From assembly GCA_038062455.1 (NCBI GenBank), contig JBBTXE010000001.1:186371-250370 (forward strand): a stretch of 64,000 nt of DNA, in the 5' to 3' direction. This document shows positions 2,678 to 14,134 of this stretch, one piece after another. The translations under genes and the position numbers were made by a program. Position 1 is the stretch's first letter. Each line of letters starts with the position of its first letter. The notes below the pieces were generated by a model. That model was not told the DNA's origin. It saw only the letters and a list, made by a program, of their open reading frames with translations, and made no database searches. This DNA comes from Patescibacteria group bacterium (GTDB lineage Bacteria > Patescibacteriota > Microgenomatia > UBA12405).

Positions 2678-3571
2678 TTACTTCATTCCCACTATTACTC
2701 TTTCATTCCAATGCCGGTCGGTTTTAACCGTCAGTTCTAAAAATACTTTTCTCCCGCTCATCAGTTCCAGCTCTTTTCGGGCGTTAAAGCCGATTTCTTT
2801 GATCTTTTGGCCGTTTCTACCAATAATCATTTTTTTATATTTATCGGCATTGGTATAAATTGAGGCGGCAATATAAATTAATTTCTTTTTATCCTCGACT
2901 TTTTCTACCTCGACAAAAACCGTGTAAGGTAACTCATCCCGTAAAAATAAGTAAGCTTTCTCTCTAATAATTTCTTCGATATACTCCTTTGAGCTCATCG
3001 CTGTCAGTGGTCTGATCTCGGCACACATTGCCTCAATACTTTCCTTTGTCCCCCTATTTATATTTGCCGGCAACAATTCAAAAATTTCGATTAATAATTG
3101 TTTGATATTTTTCGACTTAATAGCGCTAATAGCCACAGTTCGGTCAAATTCATCTTCCAGATAGTTGTAATCCGGCAGATGATTTTTCGAACCTATGGCT
3201 TTATCAATTTTGTTATAAACCAAAATCTTTTTACACTTCATCTTGCGCATCAAGCCCAATATCTTATTTTCCTCTTCATTTTTGGGGCGGGAAATATCGA
3301 CGAGAGTTACTATCAAATCAGCCTTGGCCAATTCCCGCGGCACTTCCTCATTGACTCTCTTGGATAACAAATCCTCAACTTTCCCGATTAATCCCGGAGT
3401 ATCGACAAACATTATTTTGCCCCGCTCATCCGAATAAACCACCGCCTGGCTTCGACGGGTGGTTTGGGGTAGCGGTGAGGTAATCGCCACCTTTTGGTTT
3501 ACGATGGTATTAAGCAATGTCGACTTGCCTGTATTCGGCCGTCCCACAATGGCCACCTTTCCGTATTTCAT
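2678..3571 (-). CDS. era: GTPase Era
   Basis: G1 GRPNTGKSTLLN, G3 DTPGL, NKID; C-terminal KH-like region (IIGRNGQKIKEIG). Confidence 0.9.
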   Translation of the reverse strand: MKYGKVAIVGRPNTGKSTLLNTIVNQKVAITSPLPQTTRRSQAVVYSDERGKIMFVDTPGLIGKVEDLLSKRVNEEVPRELAKADLIVTLVDISRPKNEEENKILGLMRKMKCKKILVYNKIDKAIGSKNHLPDYNYLEDEFDRTVAISAIKSKNIKQLLIEIFELLPANINRGTKESIEAMCAEIRPLTAMSSKEYIEEIIREKAYLFLRDELPYTVFVEVEKVEDKKKLIYIAASIYTNADKYKKMIIGRNGQKIKEIGFNARKELELMSGRKVFLELTVKTDRHWNERVIVGMK

Positions 3572-3633
3572 TGGTGTATTCTACCCTACTTTCTTCATTG
3601 ACACTTAGCACCTCTAGTGCTAGACTGCTAATT

Positions 3634-5961
3634 ATGCCCGATGAGAGAAAATATTTACCCCTAATCCCTCTGCGTAACGTAGTCTTATTTCCTTCAGTTG
3701 AAACCTCGCTCTTTTTTGGCCGCAAAGAATCCAGTAATTCACTATTAGAAGCCTACGACAAACACAACCATTTATGTATTATTACCGCCCAGCGGAATTC
3801 CACCACCGACAAACCGGCACTCAAAGATATCTACACCGTGGCCATTTTGGCCCGCATTGAACACATTTTGCAAACCGATGGCAGTCTCCATGCTATCGTC
3901 AGGGGTCTCTCCCGGGTCAATATATTAGGTTTTGTCCAAACCGATCCCTTTATAATGGCCGAATATACCGATACACCCATTATTTCCGAGTTGGCCTCCG
4001 ATATTCAGCAATCGGCTGAAGCTCTTCTTTCCCAGTTAAAAAAAGCTTTTTCTCTTGGCCGACAATTTGATCTTCCGGCCATGATGCAGCTATCAACCGG
4101 CGTTTCTTCTTCCGACCTTGCCGACCAGGTTTCCTTTTCCGTCGAGGCTAAACTGCCGGAAAAACAAAAACTTCTGGAGACTCTTTTAGTATCAGAGCGT
4201 CTCAAGACCGCCACCGAACTACTGATTCGGGAAATGAAAGTCGCCGATCTCGAGCGTTCTATCGAAGAAAAAACTCAACAAAAATTCAATTCCACCATGA
4301 AAAGAAATGTATTAGAGGAACGCAAACACCAAATTGAACAGGAGTTAAAAAAATTGGGGAAAGAAGGGGATAGTGAATTTAGCGATTTGGAACACAAATT
4401 AAAAAAAGCTCAAATGCCTGCCGATGTCAAAAAGAAAGTTCTCAAAGAATACCACCGTCTGACCCAAATGGGTCCCATGTCTCCCGAAAGCAGTTACATT
4501 CGAACCTATCTCGAAATCATTGTTGAACTCCCTTGGGGGAAATATGATAAATCCGATCTCTCGGTCAAAAAATCAGCCAGTATCTTAAATCATGATCATT
4601 ACGGACTCAAAGAAGTCAAAGAAAGGATTTTAGAATATCTATCGGTTTTAAAACTAAAAAAAGAATCCGGTGACGACACTCAAACTGCCAACATTTTATG
4701 TTTTATTGGTCCTCCCGGAGTCGGCAAGACCTCTCTTGGCCGCTCAATAGCGCAAGCTATGGGTCGCCACTTTGTCCGGGCCTCTCTGGGTGGTATTCGT
4801 GACGAAGCCGAAATCCGTGGCCACCGCCGAACCTATGTTGGCGCTATGGCCGGTCGGATTGTCAATGGTATCAAAGACGCCAAGTCTATGAATCCCGTTT
4901 TTATGCTCGACGAGGTGGACAAAATCGGCGCTGATTACCGCGGCGACCCCAGTGCCGCCCTGCTGGAAGCTCTTGATCCCGAACAAAATAAAGACTTCAC
5001 CGACCACTATCTCGATTTTCCCCTCGACCTCTCCAAAGTCTTTTTTATTCTTACCGGCAACGATGCCTCATCGGTTCCTTATGCCCTGCGGGATCGTCTG
5101 GAAATAATTAATTTCTCCGGCTATACCCAGGAGGAAAAATACCATATTGCCGATCAATATTTAATCAAGAAAGAATTAAAAGCCAATGGATTAAAGACTT
5201 CTCAAATTTCCCCCTTCAAACCCGACACTCTCCGCTACCTTATCGACAAATATACCCGTGAAGCCGGTGTCCGTCATCTGGAACGGACCATTGCTACTCT
5301 TTTCCGCAAAGCCGCCAAAAAAATTGTGGCTGGCAATGTCAAAAAAGTTGATGTCAACGACCGCCCCCTTCTTCAAAAGTTTTTAGGCCCGGAAAAATTT
5401 TCATCCCAGCTCAAGGGCAAAAAAGACGAAGTAGGTGTCTCAACCGGACTGGCTTGGACCTCTGTTGGCGGTGATATTCTCTTTATCGAGGTAAATATCA
5501 TGCCCGGAAAAGGCCAGCTGACATTGACTGGTAAACTCGGCTCTGTCATGAAAGAATCCTGTCAGGCTGCTCTCTCCTTTGTCCGTTCCCAAGCCAAGGA
5601 GTGGGGGATTAAGGTTGATTTTCACAAAATTGATATTCATATCCATGTTCCCGAGGGTGCCACCCCCAAGGATGGCCCTTCCGCCGGTGGCGCCATCACC
5701 ACTGCCCTTATTTCCGCTCTCAAAAACCATCCTGTCCCCCGTCACATTGGCATGACCGGCGAAATAACTCTTCGGGGGAATATTCTGGAAATTGGCGGAC
5801 TTAAGGAAAAATCTATTGCCGCTCATCGGGCCGGACTAACCACTATTTTTATCCCCAAAGATAATCAGAAATCATTAGTTGAAATTCCTTCCGAAGTTAA
5901 AAAAACTATCAAATTTATCCCCGTTTCCCACTATTCCGAAATTTACAAAAAGATTTTTTAG
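3634..5961 (+). CDS. lon: ATP-dependent Lon protease
   Basis: ORF track starts at 3517, which overlaps era. I prefer ATG 3634 ([20 protein letters not shown], a Lon N-domain start). Walker [10 protein letters not shown]; protease Ser motif KDGPSAG. Confidence 0.9.
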
Positions 5962-6003: not shown

Positions 6004-7491
6004 GTGAATTTCAAAAAAAATCGTCAACCAGAAATTAGCTTGTTTCTCCTTTTTCTTCTAGCGATTGCCCTCCCTTTTTCATTTAAAGCCTCAAGGAATG
6101 TTGCTAATGTTTATCAATATGCAACTAATCCCCTTGGCGTTGCCACTACCACCCCCCTTCCAACTTTGGGGTTAGGGGAACTAAATAACATAAAAATCTT
6201 TATCACCGATCCGATCTATTCCACCGCTACATCCCCAAATTTTACTCGGGTTACCTTTCATGTTACCGGTATTGGAGTTTCCAGTTTTAATTCACTCACC
6301 GGTAAATATTACTATGGTAGTACTCCTAAAACATTTACCTTGACTAAGGTTGGAACAGAGTTATCCGGCCGGATTGATTTATATGGCCCCGACATTATTG
6401 AGTTTTACAGCCCCAATGGGCTTTATCTTGCCTCTCTTTGTCTGGCAACCAACATGTATGGCATTAATCAAGGTGATTATCTCTATGGTCCTAAATGCGG
6501 CAGCGTCGCCAATGTTCGTATTTTTTACAATTATCCCAACTATATATATAAAAATAAACTATCAGCTGTTGCCTATTCACTTCCCTACACCAAAATTCAA
6601 ACTCCTTCATTTAAACCTACAAACGTATTTTTTATTCTCCAAAGCCCAACCGGTTTTACCAACGTCGAACCATGGATTACTCCAAACAATTCCTCTATGT
6701 GTAGCCAACCGACAGCTAAAATGATGGTTTTCAGCTCTTTTGAAGACACTTCACCTCAATATTACGATCTTATTAATGCCTATTCCTGCATGTTTCGAAC
6801 CCCCTATGGCCAACCCTTAAATGAATTTATATTTAACAATAAATATTTAACCATCCTACCCTGGTTCGGTCCTACTCCATCTCCGATTCCTACAATTACT
6901 CCAACCCCTACTCCCACTCCAACCTCAATACCTACACCGACACCACAACAATTTATTAAAGTTGACGCCCCCAATGGTGGTGAAATTTTGACTGTCGGCT
7001 CAACTACCACAATTATTTGGTCCTCCGTCGGTATAACGTTAGTCAGCCTTGATTTGATTGATCAATCCGGTTTTGGTTCTGGTATTGCCCTGAACATTTC
7101 GTCTGTTCCCAATACTCTCACTTGGGTCGTTCAAAAAACCTACCACCAACCCAATCAATCCTGGTTCAAAATTCGAATTATCGGTGACCAGAATCCAAAC
7201 ATATCCGATCTATCCGATGATTATTTTACTATCAATAGCATTCTTCCTACACCAACCAATACCCCAATTCCCACAAGTACTCTTACACCTACCCCAAGAC
7301 CATCCAATATTCCTACTCTAACCCTTTCTCCCACCAAGCGTCCAACCCCCACTCCCACAAGGCGTCCTACACCTACTCCCACCATTAGAATTGGTCGCTG
7401 CGGTACTGCTTATCTTCGTTACTGCGCACTGCGGCATATGCTTTGCCAAAGAATAAACAACCGTGACACCTGCGTTCCCTATAAAAAATAG
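6004..7491 (+). CDS. Secreted protein with Pro/Thr-rich linkers and a Cys-rich C-terminus
   Basis: GTG start; N-terminal signal/TM (ISLFLLFLLAIALPF). Two PT linkers (PTPSPIPTITPTPTPTPTSIPTPTP; PTPTNTPIPTSTLTPTPRPS...RRPTPTPT) flank a beta-sandwich-like module (APNGGEILTVGSTTTIIWSS...DDYFTI). Four Cys in the last 30 aa. Confidence 0.6.
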   Translation: MNFKKNRQPEISLFLLFLLAIALPFSFKASRNVANVYQYATNPLGVATTTPLPTLGLGELNNIKIFITDPIYSTATSPNFTRVTFHVTGIGVSSFNSLTGKYYYGSTPKTFTLTKVGTELSGRIDLYGPDIIEFYSPNGLYLASLCLATNMYGINQGDYLYGPKCGSVANVRIFYNYPNYIYKNKLSAVAYSLPYTKIQTPSFKPTNVFFILQSPTGFTNVEPWITPNNSSMCSQPTAKMMVFSSFEDTSPQYYDLINAYSCMFRTPYGQPLNEFIFNNKYLTILPWFGPTPSPIPTITPTPTPTPTSIPTPTPQQFIKVDAPNGGEILTVGSTTTIIWSSVGITLVSLDLIDQSGFGSGIALNISSVPNTLTWVVQKTYHQPNQSWFKIRIIGDQNPNISDLSDDYFTINSILPTPTNTPIPTSTLTPTPRPSNIPTLTLSPTKRPTPTPTRRPTPTPTIRIGRCGTAYLRYCALRHMLCQRINNRDTCVPYKK

Positions 7492-7650: not shown

Positions 7651-9963
7651 TCACATCTTTTCCAATATCTTTATTCCTAGTATCGTCAAACCGTCTTTAA
7701 TTATTTTAGCCGTCACTTTGGTCAAAAATAATCTCTGTTCTTCATGTGCTTCGCCGATAATCCGATGTTTTCCATAAAACTCATTATATTTCCGGGCTAA
7801 TATCAGCAAATATTCTGCCAACACTGCCGGAGAAAATCTATCCGCCGCCTCAACTATTTTTTCGCTATATTGATAAAAATACCGCAGTAGTGCCTTTTCC
7901 TCTTCATTAAATTCGTAATTTGTAATTCGTAATTCGTAATTGGTTTTGGCTTTAGCCAAAACGCTCCGGCATCTGGCATAGGTATATTGCAAATATGGTC
8001 CCGAATTTCCCTCCATACTCATCACTTTATCCCAATCAAAAATGATGTCCCTTTTGGGGTCAGCCGATAAATCATTAAATTTAATCGCTCCAATGGCTAC
8101 TGCTTCAATCTCCGCCTCAGTGTTTGTCGGGGCAATCTTTTTTGCCTGTTCTTTAGCCGTTTCTATTATTTCGGCCAAGTGGATTGTGTCACCTTTCCGA
8201 GTAGAAAATTTGCCTTCTTTCCAACGGATTAGACCATGCCCTATATGGATAAAACTATCTCCCCAGCCCATCAATCTGGCTGCCGCAAAAACTTGTTTAA
8301 AATGCAGGTTTTGTTCCGACCCCACCTCATAAATAATTAAATCCGGATTCCATTTTTCCTTTCTAAATTTGACCGTCGCCATATCCCGGGTAAAATAGGT
8401 TGTGGCTCCGTCGGACTTAAGAAGCATTGCCGGCGGAAGACTCTTCATCTCCACCATCAGTGCCCCCTCTGATTTCTTGGTTAGGCCTCCAGCCTTCATT
8501 TCTGAAATCACTTCCGGAAGCATTGGCAAATAAAACGCCTCACCGTAAGCATTATCTATTTTGACATCCAGCATTTCATAAACCCGGTTAAATTCATTCA
8601 TTGATATATCAACGCAATCCTGCCAGATTTTTTTAGCTTCTCCATTACCTTGTTCCAGTTTGGCAAACCAGGCTCGAGCCTCGTCCTCCAGTGTTTTATC
8701 AGTTTCGGCTTCTTCATGAAACTTCACATACAACTTTTCCAAGCCCTCAATTGTCTCCTCCATTCCCCAATGTTTAATTGCGGTAATCATTTTGCCAAAT
8801 TGAGTTCCCCAATCACCCAAGTGGTTGTCCCCGATGCATGTCCAACCTAAGGTTTGGTAAATATTGTAGAGTGCCTGACCGATGTTGGTCGACCGCAGGT
8901 GGCCTATCCCAAAGGGTTTGGCAATATTCGGGGCGCTGTAATCGATTACCATTGTTTTTCCTTTACCAATTTTTTTCAGCTCATCTTTTTGTTTACCGTT
9001 TAATATTTTTTCGGCCTCTTTTGCCAATACTTCTTGTTTCAGCCAGAGGTTTGAGAAACCGGTCACCTTATCCATTTTTTCAATAATATCCAAATCGGTT
9101 ACATCAACATCTCCCCGTATTGCAAAATCCCCAAAGTTATCCGCCGGATGGGTTATCGGTACACCAACTTTATCGTGTATATTTTTTGCCAGAAAATAAT
9201 ACTTCTTTTCCACCACTTTCTTTTCTATCTTATTTACTTCAAAATCAGCTAGTTTTTTTGATTCAAAATTAATCTCTGCTTCCGGATGATCTTTATTGAG
9301 AATCAAAATTTCCCCCTTACCTCCAAGATTCCTAGTCACATAGTCAATAAATTCTTCAGCAATTTTAACTAGTTCTTCTTTATTGCTTTCAAATCCATCC
9401 ATGACAAAATAGCCATTTTTAGATTCCGGAGTTAATTTAGTCCGATCACACTGTCGCCAGTTCCAAGATCGGCAGGTAACGTCTAGATCATCCCGCCAGA
9501 TCAATTCCCCTTCAAATGCTGGTTTACTTTTGGTTGAGCCAATGACCACCCATCTTTCCCCACCTTTGGCTAATGTTAGTACCAAGTTCCCGCAAGACTG
9601 ATCCAAATTTTCTCCGCCAAACGGTGTCAAATACTTGACACTAAAAGCATTGTAGGTATTAACAATGGTGTTAATATCGGGCAGCTTTGAACCTTCTAAA
9701 AGCCTCTTGGTTAGGGCTATGTGCGATGGTTCGGCTTCCTCGATGGCTCCAAAATCTTTAAACACTTTTCGGTATTCAGTTACTCTTTTATCTTTTTCCC
9801 ATGTTACCTTATCTATATTTTTTAAAAAATCGTTTTGCACTGTATCCAAAAACATGGCCGATTCTTCTCTTTTTATTCCGGCATTAAATCCGTAAACAAT
9901 CGGTACCACCTCCACCATCTCCGGAAATTTCTCAAATACCGTTTTATCAATTTTGAATTTCAT
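7651..9963 (-). CDS. argS: Arginyl-tRNA synthetase with N-terminal B3/B4 (PheRS-beta-like) domain
   Basis: 770 aa. The C-terminal ~520 aa are ArgRS (PNIAKPFGIGHLRS, DHLGDWGTQFGKM, GNSGPYLQYTYARCRS, DALR-type anticodon domain). The first ~235 aa match the COG3382 B3/B4 family pattern (LPDINTIVNTYNAFSVKYLTPFGGENLD...TCRSWNWRQCDRTKLT). Confidence 0.9.
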   Translation of the reverse strand: MKFKIDKTVFEKFPEMVEVVPIVYGFNAGIKREESAMFLDTVQNDFLKNIDKVTWEKDKRVTEYRKVFKDFGAIEEAEPSHIALTKRLLEGSKLPDINTIVNTYNAFSVKYLTPFGGENLDQSCGNLVLTLAKGGERWVVIGSTKSKPAFEGELIWRDDLDVTCRSWNWRQCDRTKLTPESKNGYFVMDGFESNKEELVKIAEEFIDYVTRNLGGKGEILILNKDHPEAEINFESKKLADFEVNKIEKKVVEKKYYFLAKNIHDKVGVPITHPADNFGDFAIRGDVDVTDLDIIEKMDKVTGFSNLWLKQEVLAKEAEKILNGKQKDELKKIGKGKTMVIDYSAPNIAKPFGIGHLRSTNIGQALYNIYQTLGWTCIGDNHLGDWGTQFGKMITAIKHWGMEETIEGLEKLYVKFHEEAETDKTLEDEARAWFAKLEQGNGEAKKIWQDCVDISMNEFNRVYEMLDVKIDNAYGEAFYLPMLPEVISEMKAGGLTKKSEGALMVEMKSLPPAMLLKSDGATTYFTRDMATVKFRKEKWNPDLIIYEVGSEQNLHFKQVFAAARLMGWGDSFIHIGHGLIRWKEGKFSTRKGDTIHLAEIIETAKEQAKKIAPTNTEAEIEAVAIGAIKFNDLSADPKRDIIFDWDKVMSMEGNSGPYLQYTYARCRSVLAKAKTNYELRITNYEFNEEEKALLRYFYQYSEKIVEAADRFSPAVLAEYLLILARKYNEFYGKHRIIGEAHEEQRLFLTKVTAKIIKDGLTILGIKILEKM
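7909..7941 (-). repeat. 7-nt tandem repeat (AATTACG x ~4.5) in frame inside argS
   Basis: Minus strand aattacg aattacg aattaca aattacg aattt encodes NYELRITNYEF at the junction to the anticodon-binding domain. Confidence 0.8.
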
Positions 9964-9972
9964 ATCTATATT

Positions 9973-10470
9973 TTACCCCAATAAATCTTTAACAATTTTA
10001 TAAATGTCAATTAAGGATGCGACATGGACGAAATTAACCCCGATTGTATCCGCTTCCTTTTTATAGTCTTTATCATCAAACCAATAAACATCATTCATAC
10101 TAATATGTGTTTTCTTCATGATCTCTTCAACCATAACGTGTTTTGGACAGTACCCTCGCCACAGTCTGACGTTGACAGAGTTTATGTCTATATATGGCCA
10201 CAATTTAAATAATTTTAGCGCCTCGACCACCATCGATTTTTGATTGTCACTAACAATTCCCGCAAGGTGACCCGTGTCGGATAATAATTTAAATACTTCC
10301 ACTATATTTTTTCCTAAGTAGATTTTTTGACCATCGATTTGTCTTAAAATCAATCTTGGATCAACAAATTTTAGTTTTGATGTTTTACTACTAATATAGT
10401 CTTTATTTTTGGTATGCCACAAAGTTTCATCAGCATCAAATAAAAATAGTTTTTTATTCATGTGTTTCAA
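9973..10470 (-). CDS. HAD-superfamily phosphatase, MDP-1-like
   Basis: 165 aa; motif I FDADETLW (DxDxT followed by LW, as in magnesium-dependent phosphatase-1); IVSDN; WFDDKDYK. Confidence 0.65.
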   Translation of the reverse strand: MKHMNKKLFLFDADETLWHTKNKDYISSKTSKLKFVDPRLILRQIDGQKIYLGKNIVEVFKLLSDTGHLAGIVSDNQKSMVVEALKLFKLWPYIDINSVNVRLWRGYCPKHVMVEEIMKKTHISMNDVYWFDDKDYKKEADTIGVNFVHVASLIDIYKIVKDLLG

Positions 10471-11815
10471 TAACTTTTAATAAAGTATTAATCAAACCGT
10501 ATTTTTTAAGCTCCTCCCAAGAGGGATTATTGAAGTTAAGCCCTTCCCAAACAGCTTCTCCTTCAAAAACATCTGAGTTTGGGTAAAACACTGTCGAGTA
10601 GGCCACTTTTCCGGCATACTCCATAGGAAACAATCTCTCTTGACCAAAATGATATTCTCGGATTTCAAAACTTTTACCCTTATGTCCGATACCGAATCTT
10701 TGACAATAATCGCCGTTAAGATTTGTTATTTTACCCACTAAGTTATTAGACAATCCGGCTAATTCTGAGGTCCAAGGTAGATGAATTGTCGAATTAAAAC
10801 TCCACAAATGACTTAATTTAGAAATTAAATCATCAAATTGAAAACAATATTTCTGGTCTGGTATTTTTCCTGATGCCAGATCTAAAAATAATCTATTTAA
10901 AAAATTAAATTCATATGATGGAGAATGAAACGCAGACCCTAAATCGACTATCCTTCCTTCCGCTTGGTAAGGCAGCCACTTTTTCATCTCGCTCCACGGT
11001 GGAATATAGGCACTGCACAACACACTCAGTCCTTCTGTTTCCGATTTGGACGTATTATCGATAGCCCGCTTCAGCATAAATACTTTTTTAGATATCACAC
11101 TATTATCTAGATTTTTTAAGGCTGGAATTTGGTCCAAAGAATTCTGGGTTAGCCAATAAAATATACCCATGCCCGGGTAATATCGCTTATCTTCTTTTAC
11201 TTTTAAGTCGACAAATGTAGGTAAATCAGTAGCCCAATTCCAGTCCCTATCTTTTCGTAGACCGCCAACTCCGGTTATGTTTCTGACCGTAATAATTGGT
11301 TTTCCTGTTAGGGTTAACCAGGTGAAATCTTCTAAATCTGGAACCATGGAATCAGTTTTGGTCACTCCGGGGAAAATAAAATCCTGACATCCGCCCAATT
11401 CCTGAGCCATTTGGCAAAAAAGTAAAGCAAATTTCCTGGATATTATCAGTTCTGATTTTACTGTTTTTAAAACTTGGTCGAAAGAAATATCAAGTCCTAG
11501 CAATTTAGCCTCATAAGTTAAACCGCCGACTAAAAATAATTCTCCAACCACCTTAGCCAGTTTTCGATGTGACTGGCAGGAATCATAGCCTGTTTCCAGA
11601 TAACCTACTTCTGGATCAGGTAAGTTATTTTTTACGGTACTAATTATTGCTTCAGCGTATTCAGGCCTTATAGTTTCTGTTTGTTTGTGTAGCCAAAATA
11701 AAGCTTCTTCTTGGCCATTATCGGTGCAAATATAGTCTTTGGCCCAATTTATATGCTCCTTAAGTTCCACCATCTGTTTTGGTGGAATATTCATTGTTTC
11801 TATTATATTTTTCAT
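10454..11815 (-). CDS. Hypothetical protein (453 aa from the first ATG)
   Basis: The ORF-track start at 11830 is a TTG lying inside the U-tract of the upstream terminator. The first ATG is at 11815 (MKNIIETMNIPP...). No motif I can recognise. 17-nt overlap with the downstream HAD gene suggests co-translation. Confidence 0.6.
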   Translation of the reverse strand: MKNIIETMNIPPKQMVELKEHINWAKDYICTDNGQEEALFWLHKQTETIRPEYAEAIISTVKNNLPDPEVGYLETGYDSCQSHRKLAKVVGELFLVGGLTYEAKLLGLDISFDQVLKTVKSELIISRKFALLFCQMAQELGGCQDFIFPGVTKTDSMVPDLEDFTWLTLTGKPIITVRNITGVGGLRKDRDWNWATDLPTFVDLKVKEDKRYYPGMGIFYWLTQNSLDQIPALKNLDNSVISKKVFMLKRAIDNTSKSETEGLSVLCSAYIPPWSEMKKWLPYQAEGRIVDLGSAFHSPSYEFNFLNRLFLDLASGKIPDQKYCFQFDDLISKLSHLWSFNSTIHLPWTSELAGLSNNLVGKITNLNGDYCQRFGIGHKGKSFEIREYHFGQERLFPMEYAGKVAYSTVFYPNSDVFEGEAVWEGLNFNNPSWEELKKYGLINTLLKVIETHE

Positions 11816-11825
11816 ATATTTTTTC

Positions 11826-12067
11826 AACAAAAAAGCCCCTTCGATTCCAATAGAAGATTGGAACCAAAGGGGCCAAAAAAGTTGGCGGTACCACCCTTTT
11901 TCAGTCTCTCAATAAAAATCCCCCTTGCGGAGGATGCCACTGAAATATTGAGAAACTCTCATTCTTCAGCGCTCCGTTGCCGACACGCTTTGCTTTCTTT
12001 ACGGTTTGCCTCCGTATCCCATTTTTGGGATCACCTCTCGGATCGCGACTCCGATTAAACGGTTTAT
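11826..12067 (-). promoter_or_regulatory. T-box riboswitch leader (terminator/antiterminator type)
   Basis: Minus-strand RNA contains AAAAAGGGUGGUACCGCC (plus 11885..11902), which matches the T-box consensus AAnnnGGGUGGNACCGCG. The antiterminator can be drawn as AGGG[UGGUACC]GCCAA-loop-UUGGC-CCCU. A competing terminator GCCCCUU...AAGGGGC (11835..11873) is followed by UUUUUU. A GNRA-capped hairpin AUCCUCC-GCAA-GGGGGAU (11918..11935) lies just upstream. Confidence 0.75.
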
Positions 12068-12128: not shown

Positions 12129-12902
12129 GTGAAACCCATTTCCGAACTGACATCGAATCAAATATCTAATATTAAACTCATCTCTTTTGACAGTGATGGG
12201 GTTTTGGTCAAAAAGGGGACTGAACTCTCTCAAACCCAAGATGGCTCTTTCTCTCAAAGAACCAATTTTGTTTCACCTTCAGTATTGGACAGATTAAAAC
12301 TTCTTAAAAGACGCTTTCATATCGTTATCAATAGCGGTCGTAACAGTCTCTATCTTAGCCAAATTTATCAGGATATTCTCTGGGACAATGTCACTCTTAT
12401 CTCCGAAATCGGTGTCTTTCTTACCGGCCAGGGCTTCATGGTCCAAACCGAAAAAATGGATGATTATGAACTTGAAATTATCGCAAAAATCCGCGCCAAA
12501 TTAGGTAAATTAATCGGTGATCCCCGGGTCAAAGGTTTTGAACCCAAACAATTTTTGACCACTCTTCACTGTTTTTCCGAAGTTCCCGAAGTGGCTACAA
12601 TCGTCAAAGATTGTGATCCGGAAAATAAATTTTATTGTTGGTGGAATCTCGAGGCTTACGACATAAACTGTCAAAAATTTACCAAAATCAAGGCTCTGCT
12701 AAAACTACTATCATTGATGAAACTTAGTCCCTCCGAAGTTATGGTGGTTGGCAATGGTATTAACGATCGGGATTCGGTCACCTCCCAAATCCTCAACGTT
12801 TCCACCAATCCGTCAAACTTAATCGCTGACGATTATTCTATTGAGGGTGAACATCTCGGCGGTGAACTTCTTTTAGATCAACTTCTTCGGCTCATTTTCT
12901 AA
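12129..12902 (+). CDS. HAD-superfamily hydrolase (Cof/IIB-like)
   Basis: GTG start; motif I FDSDGVLV; motif IV VGNGINDRD; ~100-aa cap between them. Confidence 0.7.
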   Translation: MKPISELTSNQISNIKLISFDSDGVLVKKGTELSQTQDGSFSQRTNFVSPSVLDRLKLLKRRFHIVINSGRNSLYLSQIYQDILWDNVTLISEIGVFLTGQGFMVQTEKMDDYELEIIAKIRAKLGKLIGDPRVKGFEPKQFLTTLHCFSEVPEVATIVKDCDPENKFYCWWNLEAYDINCQKFTKIKALLKLLSLMKLSPSEVMVVGNGINDRDSVTSQILNVSTNPSNLIADDYSIEGEHLGGELLLDQLLRLIF

Positions 12903-13513
12903 TCAAAATTTCCCAGTCTCCAAATCGATCTTTTTTCGTCAAAGTAAATAGAGGTAATTCCGCCGTTTTTAAAACTTAGAGCTCGGAAAAATTTTTTAAA
13001 CAGCTTCGACTCAAAATCATCTCCGACAATCAAGTGGCAAATTAGACATCTCAAAAAATCGGCATGTGATACTACCAATATTGTTTTGTCAAAATATTTT
13101 GTCATCAACATTTTTCCAATTACTTTTGCTCTTTTAAAAGCTTCAACCATTGATTCACCTGTCTTATCAAATTTCCACCTAGGATCACAAAATTTTTTCT
13201 CACGCTCCTTAGCGTATCTGATTGCCTCGCTGTCTTCATTACTTTTTCCGCCCAATGTTTGTGATTGCAACCGTTCCCGATACATTTTTTCAAAAATAAC
13301 CTCTATTTTTAAAGTCATGTTAATTATTTCAGCCGTCTCTCTGGCCCGGGTCCAAGGGCTGGAAATTATCACCTCTATTCCCTTATCTTTTATCAACCTG
13401 CCGGTTCTTCTAGATTGTATCTTGCCGGTTTCAGACAAGCTTGACTCTGTTCTCTGTTCTATTCCGTTTTCGGCGTCAATGGTTTGTCCATGTCGGACTA
13501 GATATAGTTTCAT
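12899..13513 (-). CDS. Histidine phosphatase (phosphoglycerate-mutase-like) family protein
   Basis: N-terminal LVRHGQT (RHG motif); SSPWTRARETA; VVSHADF. Confidence 0.8.
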   Translation of the reverse strand: MKLYLVRHGQTIDAENGIEQRTESSLSETGKIQSRRTGRLIKDKGIEVIISSPWTRARETAEIINMTLKIEVIFEKMYRERLQSQTLGGKSNEDSEAIRYAKEREKKFCDPRWKFDKTGESMVEAFKRAKVIGKMLMTKYFDKTILVVSHADFLRCLICHLIVGDDFESKLFKKFFRALSFKNGGITSIYFDEKRSIWRLGNFD

Positions 13514-14028: not shown

Positions 14029-14061
14029 TTTTTTCAATTTTCATTTTTTTGCATTTTTTAG

Positions 14062-14134
14062 TGACGCTACCGGGAGTCGAACCCGGGTTAGTAGAATGAG
14101 AATCTACTGTCCTAAACCACTAGACGATAGCGCC
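14062..14134 (-). tRNA. tRNA-Glu (anticodon CUC)
   Basis: 73-nt cloverleaf read by hand. Acceptor GGCGCUA/UAGCGUC; D stem GUCU/GGAC; anticodon stem GUAGA/UCUAC with loop UUCUCAU; T arm CCGGG-UUCGACU-CCCGG; discriminator A. CCA is not encoded. Confidence 0.85.

Follow-up and report, generated by a model that had tools for sequence, protein, structure and literature searches.

Why should an arginyl-tRNA synthetase (ArgRS) begin with a domain of an editing type? The question is raised by a 64,000-nucleotide stretch of DNA, hereafter the window, from a groundwater Patescibacteria group bacterium of the candidate phyla radiation (CPR; assembly GCA_038062455.1, contig JBBTXE010000001.1, positions 186,371 to 250,370). 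The argS-type fusion gene in this window encodes, from N- to C-terminus, a CtdA-like deacylase domain, a linker, a reduced Add-1, an ArgRS catalytic core and a DALR anticodon-binding domain. With a probability of roughly 0.7, we read its product as a housekeeping ArgRS with a tethered CtdA-type deacylase, which would make it a naturally cis-editing synthetase. The parts of the gene, with the evidence on which each was delimited, are as follows.

7651..9963, minus strand: whole fusion gene, argS-type, 770 aa plus stop, ATG start (open reading frame (ORF) list, Pfam, NCBIfam)
9289..9963, minus strand: CtdA-type B3/4 aminoacyl-tRNA deacylase domain, residues 1-225 (phmmer; Foldseek; predicted local distance difference test, pLDDT; nonsynonymous and synonymous divergence, pN/pS)
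9373..9744, minus strand: Pfam B3_4 (PF03483) stretch, residues 74-197 (E 4.1e-18, 66 bits, gathering cutoff 29.3)
9397..9654, minus strand: predicted editing-pocket span with Y104, N105, G116, E118, C164, Q171, V187 and D189 (alignment to both PDB CtdA fragments)
9178..9288, minus strand: K/E-rich linker, residues 226-262 (model and composition)
9199-9237, minus strand: predicted disordered segment, residues 243-255 (pLDDT <50)
9007..9177, minus strand: reduced Add-1, residues 263-319 (alignment with homologues)
8032..9006, minus strand: class I ArgRS catalytic domain, residues 320-644 (PF00750, tRNA-synt_1d, E 1.5e-80)
8899-8937, minus strand: HIGH-position motif SAPNIAKPFGIGH, residues 343-355 (motif search)
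8191-8211, minus strand: KMSKS-position motif KFSTRKG, residues 585-591 (motif search)
7654..7992, minus strand: DALR_1 anticodon-binding domain, residues 658-770 (PF05746, E 1.2e-26)

A preliminary description of this DNA had reported a single 770-aa ORF, about 200 aa longer than ordinary bacterial ArgRS, and had quoted two peptides from its N-terminal part. The ORF listing of the window bears this out, as the frame is uninterrupted, the two quoted peptides occur in it (LPDINTIVNTYNAFSVKYLTPFGGENLD, residues 94-121; LIWRDDLDVTCRSWNWRQCDRTKLT, residues 154-178), and the protein exceeds its unfused orthologues (516-521 aa) by ~250 aa. The start codon is separated by 9 nt from the stop of an upstream co-directional gene and is backed by an N-terminus conserved in homologues, MKF-ID--VFE-FP, in which M1 is invariant. 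That two neighbouring genes were joined in error during assembly or by a frameshift, or that the contig is chimeric, is a practically negligible explanation for such a protein. An independent contig from Hainich groundwater (L087; ERZ1292620, well H52, 0.2 um fraction) matches the window at 99.904% identity over 8313 bp, and the two assemblies differ by 8 substitutions and no indels, so that the fusion ORF is intact in both and the protein changes by D379E only. The same architecture recurs in >20 further protein clusters at 45-84% identity and in the 41 fused representatives described below, and base composition is uniform along the window. Given this second intact assembly and the fused homologous clusters, an artefact was excluded.

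The preliminary description had further assigned the N-terminal residues to the B3/B4 family and, more narrowly, to the type found in the beta subunit of phenylalanyl-tRNA synthetase (PheRS). The family holds, with a PF03483 match well above its cutoff, but the PheRS label does not. When residues 1-325 were compared with the PDB by phmmer, the top solved relatives were the CtdA structures 9f7e (E 2.6e-25) and 9mkl (E 7.3e-24). In an AlphaFold2 model built on an 83-sequence alignment (mean pLDDT 90.3; predicted template modelling score, pTM, 0.69), residues 1-~225 are predicted to fold into a compact alpha/beta domain, in which most 10-residue blocks have a pLDDT of 91-98 and three blocks one of 85-88, and helices are modelled at 32-49, 52-57, 59-70 and 80-89, in the region of the single CtdA-specific three-helix insertion IS1, which spans about residues 28-92. 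A Foldseek comparison with the PDB places the N-domain on full-length CtdA (9f7e/9mkl) with target-normalised template modelling (TM) scores of 0.84-0.86 and a root-mean-square deviation of 2.6-2.8 A, the modelled superposition taking in ~226 columns of the 226-231-residue CtdA chains. The 50 Foldseek matches listed include no PheRS chain, and the Pfam scan of the fusion protein found no PheRS domains.

The pocket residues point in the same direction. CtdA residues Y104, N105, G116, E118, C166 and Q173 are identical here, as Y104, N105, G116, E118, C164 and Q171, and the two pocket changes are conservative (CtdA I189 to V187 and E191 to D189). E. coli PheRS H265 and G318 align with CtdA G116 and Q173 (PMC12449066), and at these positions the fusion protein holds the CtdA residues Gly116 and Gln171; from the whole PheRS active-site set (E. 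coli R244, N254, Y255, H265, F267, A312, G318, E334) only the Asn is common. A PheRS-type editing domain was dropped in favour of the CtdA subclass on the basis of phmmer, pocket residues and Foldseek.

CtdA was found in 2023 as a standalone canavanyl-tRNA(Arg) hydrolase (PMC10018355), and structures and mutagenesis followed in 2025 (PMC12449066, PMC12268091). In S. enterica CtdA the variants N105A, G116H/W and Q173G show no activity, and specificity is tuned by C166 (PMC12449066); in P. canavaninivorans CtdA, Y104, N105, E118 and E191 are important (PMC12268091). Six of the eight pocket positions are backed by mutagenesis in the CtdA papers and two are pocket-defining only. The Cys at position 166, reported to be strictly conserved in CtdA-1 and to tune canavanine/arginine selectivity, marks the characterised CtdA-1 clade off from CtdA-2 (PMC12449066), and this diagnostic residue is present in the fusion as C164 (nt 9472-9474). 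At the same position Thr is found in most CPR homologues, whether fused or standalone. Deeper branches pair a Cys there with a Glu at the Q173 position, and a Glu at the latter position has been reported for C. perfringens CtdA (PMC12449066).

The N-domain is 35% identical to a C. perfringens locus (L051), which we infer to be the characterised C. perfringens CtdA protein, and two characterised CtdAs used as queries are ~31% similar to each other (PMC12449066). Judged by sequence, the similarity of the N-domain to the characterised CtdAs appears comparable to their mutual similarity. Measured against a GTDB homologue (L007), pN is 0.083 in the N-domain and 0.119 in the ArgRS core, with pS ~0.70 in both, although synonymous sites are saturated and the ratio is therefore approximate. 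Even so, purifying selection on the N-domain is at least as strong as on the essential ArgRS core.

The linker that follows is rich in charged residues (10 K and 6 E in 43 residues) and widely variable in length among fused homologues. The catalytic core and the DALR domain named in the preliminary description are both recovered by Pfam, the argS equivalog TIGR00456 scores 385.8 against a cutoff of 261.65 (the alignment beginning at residue 292, model position 68), and Foldseek places the C-terminal ~565 residues on ArgRS structures 6ao8, 5yym and 1f7u with target-normalised TM scores of 0.75-0.81. Class I signatures are retained at the HIGH and KMSKS positions, the MSTR form being the usual ArgRS variant of KMSKS. 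A COG3382/B3_4 editing-type domain on a complete ArgRS, as Pfam, NCBIfam, the homologue survey, the model and Foldseek describe it, is indeed the non-standard architecture that had been suspected.

Alignment identifies the Add-1 region, which had been called recognisable, as a homologous remnant of reduced length, and PF03485 gives no match in the Pfam scan of the fusion protein even at E <= 1. Alignment to PF03485-bearing homologues reveals that the remnant is without a helical segment of ~18-25 residues, 'NIAxxLAKxxxxNPxEIAxxI'. The closest unfused ArgRS (~520 aa) carry the same deletion, which makes the truncation a trait of the lineage with no relation to the fusion. This bears on the very unlikely alternative that the N-domain is a non-catalytic tRNA-binding module which raises affinity for tRNA(Arg) and offsets the truncated Add-1. 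Such a role would fit the reduced Add-1 of this protein, one relative that is fused to a tRNA_bind domain, and the similar service of appended tRNA-binding domains on other synthetases; the insertion in CtdA is also positively charged and thought to bind the CCA end (PMC12268091). However, the catalytic and pocket residues are conserved under strong purifying selection, PF03485 is complete in 12 of 23 fused proteins and in all six ArgRS fusions scanned by Pfam, and the unfused orthologues share the reduction. As many fusions have a full Add-1 and unfused proteins a reduced one, fusion is uncorrelated with Add-1 loss, and compensation for the reduced Add-1 was rejected on this ground.

Whether the synthetase to which the domain is attached is the housekeeping enzyme was assessed from its locus, whose flanks are the following.

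3517-5961, plus strand: Lon gene flanking argS (ORF list)
12129-13513: Hydrolase_3 / His_Phos_1 pair flanking argS (ORF list, Pfam)

The named relatives of the gene belong to Candidatus Shapirobacteria, Patescibacteria group and Microgenomates (CPR). Three unfused ArgRS (P0011, P0013 and P0015), with cores 82-85% identical to ours, lie in the same His_Phos_1 / Hydrolase_3 / argS / Lon locus, and in each of them a divergent gene ends 36-61 bp upstream of argS, which leaves no space for an N-domain. The synteny shared with these unfused orthologues makes the fused gene orthologous to housekeeping argS, and no second ArgRS or CtdA-like sequence was found in the 64-kb window.

A bootstrapped neighbour-joining tree of ArgRS cores unites three fused and three verified unfused genes in our clade (98% support); within the tree, unfused P0013 is sister to fused P0002 (96% support), and fused/unfused sister pairs recur elsewhere. 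Context confirms the unfused state of the tips P0011, P0013 and P0015, and most of the others begin with a conserved MIK.. N-terminus; P0031, the apparent unfused member of one such pair, is a gene call truncated at a contig edge, so that the other unfused tips call for caution. A first ArgRS tree had all basal branches fused; this was not taken as the ancestral state, since it reflects a selection bias, a distant protein entering the top 120 sequences only when the additional domain raises its score. Even among very close relatives, whose ArgRS cores are 82-86% identical, some show the fused state and others the free one. One of these, P0008 (765 aa), matches ours at 82% identity in the ArgRS core and almost completely in the linker and first Add-1 helix, but its B3_4 domain is just 28% identical, and the positions of E118, C166 and Q173 are occupied there by H, A and D. 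The editing domain thus seems to have been swapped in situ, perhaps for one that differs in specificity. The 5' module of argS is, as far as these comparisons reach, gained, lost and exchanged over short evolutionary times.

The distribution of the domain was followed by an exhaustive phmmer search with the N-domain, which returned 1650 clusters (50% identity) at E <= 1e-3, and the 150 closest representatives were classified. ArgRS fusions with the domain at the N-terminus account for 41 of the 150 and short proteins of <300 aa for 94; the others are six LysRS fusions (four class II, two class I), three TyrRS fusions, two fusions to GNAT acetyltransferases, one to a tRNA_bind domain, one to an amidase, and two proteins of >300 aa with no partner detected (P0181, P0211). 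The ArgRS fusion is thus widespread but patchy among the nearest clusters. The count of 41 includes P0153 (1124 aa), in which tandem CtdA-like domains (residues 1-238 and 266-462) precede Add-1 and ArgRS.

Among GTDB species representatives, ArgRS fusions are found at 13 of the best 80 loci, all in CPR-type metagenome-assembled genomes (MAGs). Eight of these 13 fused ArgRS have cores just 25-30% identical to ours, and the four of the eight that were scanned by Pfam (L008, L012, L019, L078) have a full Add-1. The two parts of the protein can diverge to different extents, as L008 is 55% identical to ours in the domain and 29% in the core and L011 is 50% and 71% identical, respectively. Given such divergent cores with related domains, the N-domain has been joined to at least two deeply divergent ArgRS lineages. 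At five further GTDB loci, including two of Woesearchaeota, an ArgRS gene lies 0.3-1.3 kb downstream on the same strand. One standalone homologue is located in an argH-argG-B3_4-(80 aa)-argS cluster with a 4-nt overlap between argG and B3_4, and the deacylase-then-argS gene order of the clusters is the order within the fusion. The share of ArgRS fusions among the classified representatives, together with the standalone genes adjacent to argS, provides Rosetta-stone support for a link between the domain and ArgRS.

Standalone CtdA-like genes directly upstream of argS were seen at L004/L005/L006 (5234-11006), L066, L074 (Woesearchaeota), L033 (Peregrinibacteria) and L014, so that the linkage reaches DPANN archaea. 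CPR-type fused ArgRS also occur in third party annotation (TPA) MAGs labelled 'uncultured Gammaproteobacteria', 'Bdellovibrionales' or 'Saccharibacteria' (L007, L009, L012, L019, L078). The taxon labels of these five look unreliable; the identity of L007 to our protein is 83% in the domain and 79% in the core. Databases annotate the fused proteins merely as 'arginine--tRNA ligase'.

With these elements the working of the enzyme can be outlined. The ArgRS core would charge tRNA(Arg), sometimes with an arginine look-alike, and the fused domain would hydrolyse the ester bond of the mischarged tRNA(Arg) ahead of the ribosome, capturing its 3' end while the tRNA is bound or right after release. The tether of ~37 flexible residues would give the deacylase a high local concentration; tRNA(Arg) specificity would be borrowed from the synthetase and amino-acid discrimination would come from the CtdA-type pocket. 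The trans-editing factor CtdA would thereby be turned into a cis-editing domain. We infer both the catalysis and the action on tRNA(Arg), and we consider it probable that the domain edits mischarged tRNA(Arg).

That canavanine specifically is the analogue edited is a more tentative proposal, to which we give somewhat less than even odds. Canavanine is the best-documented arginine analogue and the substrate of the closest characterised relatives (CtdA; PMC10018355), and it is the first candidate because Cys164 and Gln171 match the residues that the S. enterica docking model places facing the oxa group (PMC12449066). Our confidence in canavanine is limited by the groundwater source, by the lack of a guanidine riboswitch and by the overlapping pocket signatures of domains fused to LysRS and TyrRS.

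Several observations weigh against reading the protein as a cis-editing ArgRS of this kind. The source is groundwater and not the rhizosphere of legumes or the gut of herbivores, where one would expect canavanine, and a search of the window at gathering threshold found no guanidine riboswitch or other Rfam element, one tRNA only. In many fused homologues the specificity position of Cys166 is taken by Thr, and the relative orientation of the domains is uncertain in the model, given its pTM and the disordered linker. Close strains manage without the N-domain, which is hence dispensable. The use of pocket residues as a substrate classifier was rejected, since the eight positions overlap between ArgRS-linked and LysRS-linked domains, and this overlap, together with the LysRS and TyrRS sister fusions, means that amino-acid specificity is not readable from sequence.

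Some of the same observations would suit an active tRNA(Arg) cis-editor whose natural target is some other arginine-like compound that a CPR cell encounters as it scavenges amino acids. Candidate targets of this sort are homoarginine, indospicine, ornithine or citrulline-type analogues, and oxa-analogue by-products of ArgG/ArgH. Besides the groundwater source and the missing riboswitch, the LysRS and TyrRS sister domains, which show the scaffold serving several specificities, speak for such a target, as do the C/T and Q/E variation at the specificity positions among fusions and the standalone homologue linked to argG and argH; activity on other amino acids has also been raised for CtdA hosts unexposed to canavanine (PMC12449066). 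By analogy with the cluster of that standalone homologue argG and argH were looked for, and neither was found in the window. On the other hand, the Cys and Gln that contact the canavanine oxa group in the docking model are both kept, and all family members characterised so far act on canavanyl-tRNA(Arg). We regard a target other than canavanine as rather unlikely.

The cognate product has to be considered as well. In S. enterica the two enzymes work together in vitro, ArgRS shielding Arg-tRNA(Arg) from CtdA, and this speaks for the cis-editing reading; S. enterica CtdA weakly cleaves Arg-tRNA(Arg) at high enzyme concentration, and its C166S variant does so effectively (PMC12449066). A regulatory brake, in which the domain deacylates cognate Arg-tRNA(Arg) to limit the charged pool, could draw on this activity; the tether would raise the local concentration, and many fused homologues carry a Ser-like Thr at the C166 position. 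Nevertheless, we judge this role to be highly improbable, as a futile, ATP-wasting cycle in an essential enzyme is unlikely for a minimal-genome organism and our protein retains Cys, not Ser or Thr. Proofreading of mischarged tRNA(Arg) by a tethered deacylase remains our preferred reading.

CtdA-like domains are also found on synthetases for other amino acids. Class II LysRS carry B3_4 at the N-terminus in Chlamydiales, Simkania (L020:3995-6292, L027:1815-4148, L029:3998-6298) and at the C-terminus in Gribaldobacteria (L070:2414-4690) and Parachlamydiales (L071:2411-4702), while a class I LysRS of Peribacteria has it at the C-terminus (L063:2321-4684). These arrangements suggest a putative proofreading of lysine analogues; no description of a LysRS fusion of a CtdA-like domain was found in the literature searched. 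Three TyrRS fusions (tRNA-synt_1b plus SYY C-terminal/S4) have B3_4 at the N-terminus (P0240, 632 aa; P0276, 658 aa; P0278, 669 aa), TyrRS being likewise without a classical editing domain. The remaining partners comprise GNAT with B3_4 (P0238, P0239), B3_4 with tRNA_bind (P0262) and B3_4 with amidase (P0178, 427 aa). A canavanine-acetylating GNAT with a guanidine riboswitch is known (PMC10416765), and the GNAT-CtdA fusions may join two canavanine defences.

From this range of partners a broader scheme can be drawn, which we put forward as a rather doubtful conjecture. CtdA-type domains would be a mobile, exchangeable proofreading cassette, joined independently to ArgRS, to both LysRS classes and to TyrRS, and their adopters would be small-genome scavenging lineages (CPR and Chlamydiae, with DPANN having it as a gene neighbour). 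Pocket variants would set the specificities, the substrate in groundwater CPR bacteria would be an unrecognised arginine antimetabolite and not legume canavanine, and presence or absence among near-identical strains would reflect selection still being exerted by that compound.

Compared with known systems, the N-domain resembles CtdA (CtdA-1; P. canavaninivorans 9f7e, S. enterica 9mkl) in its B3_4 family, predicted whole-chain fold and pocket residues, and in having tRNA(Arg)/ArgRS as functional partner. There are however differences. CtdA is described as a standalone, single-domain trans-editor and its gene is often under a guanidine riboswitch, whereas here the domain is covalently fused to ArgRS in a groundwater CPR bacterium and the window holds no such riboswitch. 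The arrangement also recalls the cis-editing domains (PheRS beta B3/B4, CP1 of LeuRS, IleRS and ValRS, INS of ProRS, N2 of ThrRS, and that of AlaRS), which likewise have a post-transfer hydrolytic site on the same polypeptide or complex. Ours, however, does not interrupt the catalytic core but hangs on the N-terminus by a disordered tether, and with PheRS B3/B4 the fold is only distantly common, the fusion domain having Gly/Gln at the PheRS H265/G318 positions.

A parallel in evolutionary terms is offered by INS and YbaK/ProXp, AlaRS and AlaX, and ThrRS and ThrRS-ed, in which the same family exists in free and synthetase-fused form and the free copies are often encoded beside the synthetase gene. 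Such a duality for the CtdA family is unreported in the literature searched. With canonical ArgRS (E. coli 5yym and 4oby, N. gonorrhoeae 6ao8) the protein shares the core, an MSTR-type motif, the DALR domain and an equivalog-level score, and it departs from them in ~250 extra N-terminal residues (domain plus linker) and a truncated Add-1.

No editing domain had been described for ArgRS up to 2023 (PMC10018355), and the words fusion and fused are absent from three CtdA papers, which call CtdA standalone or single-domain (PMC10018355, PMC12449066, PMC12268091). We found no description of an ArgRS-CtdA fusion in the full-text literature searched, which was mostly without subscription journals, so that an earlier mention is possible. 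The parts (ArgRS and CtdA) and the free/fused principle are known; the combination, not found described, appears to be new.

CPR bacteria are thought to depend on scavenged amino acids. The fusion suggests that they face enough arginine-analogue pressure for built-in proofreading, which close relatives gain and lose quickly. CtdA is the only known tRNA(Arg) proofreading, found in 2023 and characterised solely in its free-standing form, and the fusion provides independent genomic support that the CtdA family works with ArgRS/tRNA(Arg) far beyond legume-associated bacteria. The LysRS and TyrRS fusions suggest that the substrate range of the family extends beyond canavanine. We contend that the fusion is a ready system for studying the shift from trans- to cis-editing and the sparing of the cognate product when the deacylase is tethered.

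The neighbourhood of argS is variable. Compared with L001, a syntenic locus whose argS is unfused, the surroundings of argS in the window hold three additional genes, within 9973-11830 on the minus strand and 6004-7491 on the plus strand. One encodes a HAD/acid-phosphatase-like protein of 165 aa and lies 9 nt upstream of argS; another is an ORF of 458 aa without a Pfam match, called as two genes (258 + 177 aa) in the Hainich contig; the third encodes a Pro/Thr-rich protein of 495 aa showing a weak Ig-like match. The sole RNA gene found in the window is a tRNA-Glu(CTC) at 14061-14134 on the minus strand. All 2-kb bins of the window have negative GC skew (-0.02 to -0.31; cumulative -5.0), and the sign never changes. 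Finally, the Lon ORF has 814 aa as listed, compared with 775-794 aa in orthologues, and as its first ~39 residues look non-homologous, the true start of Lon is probably an internal Met.

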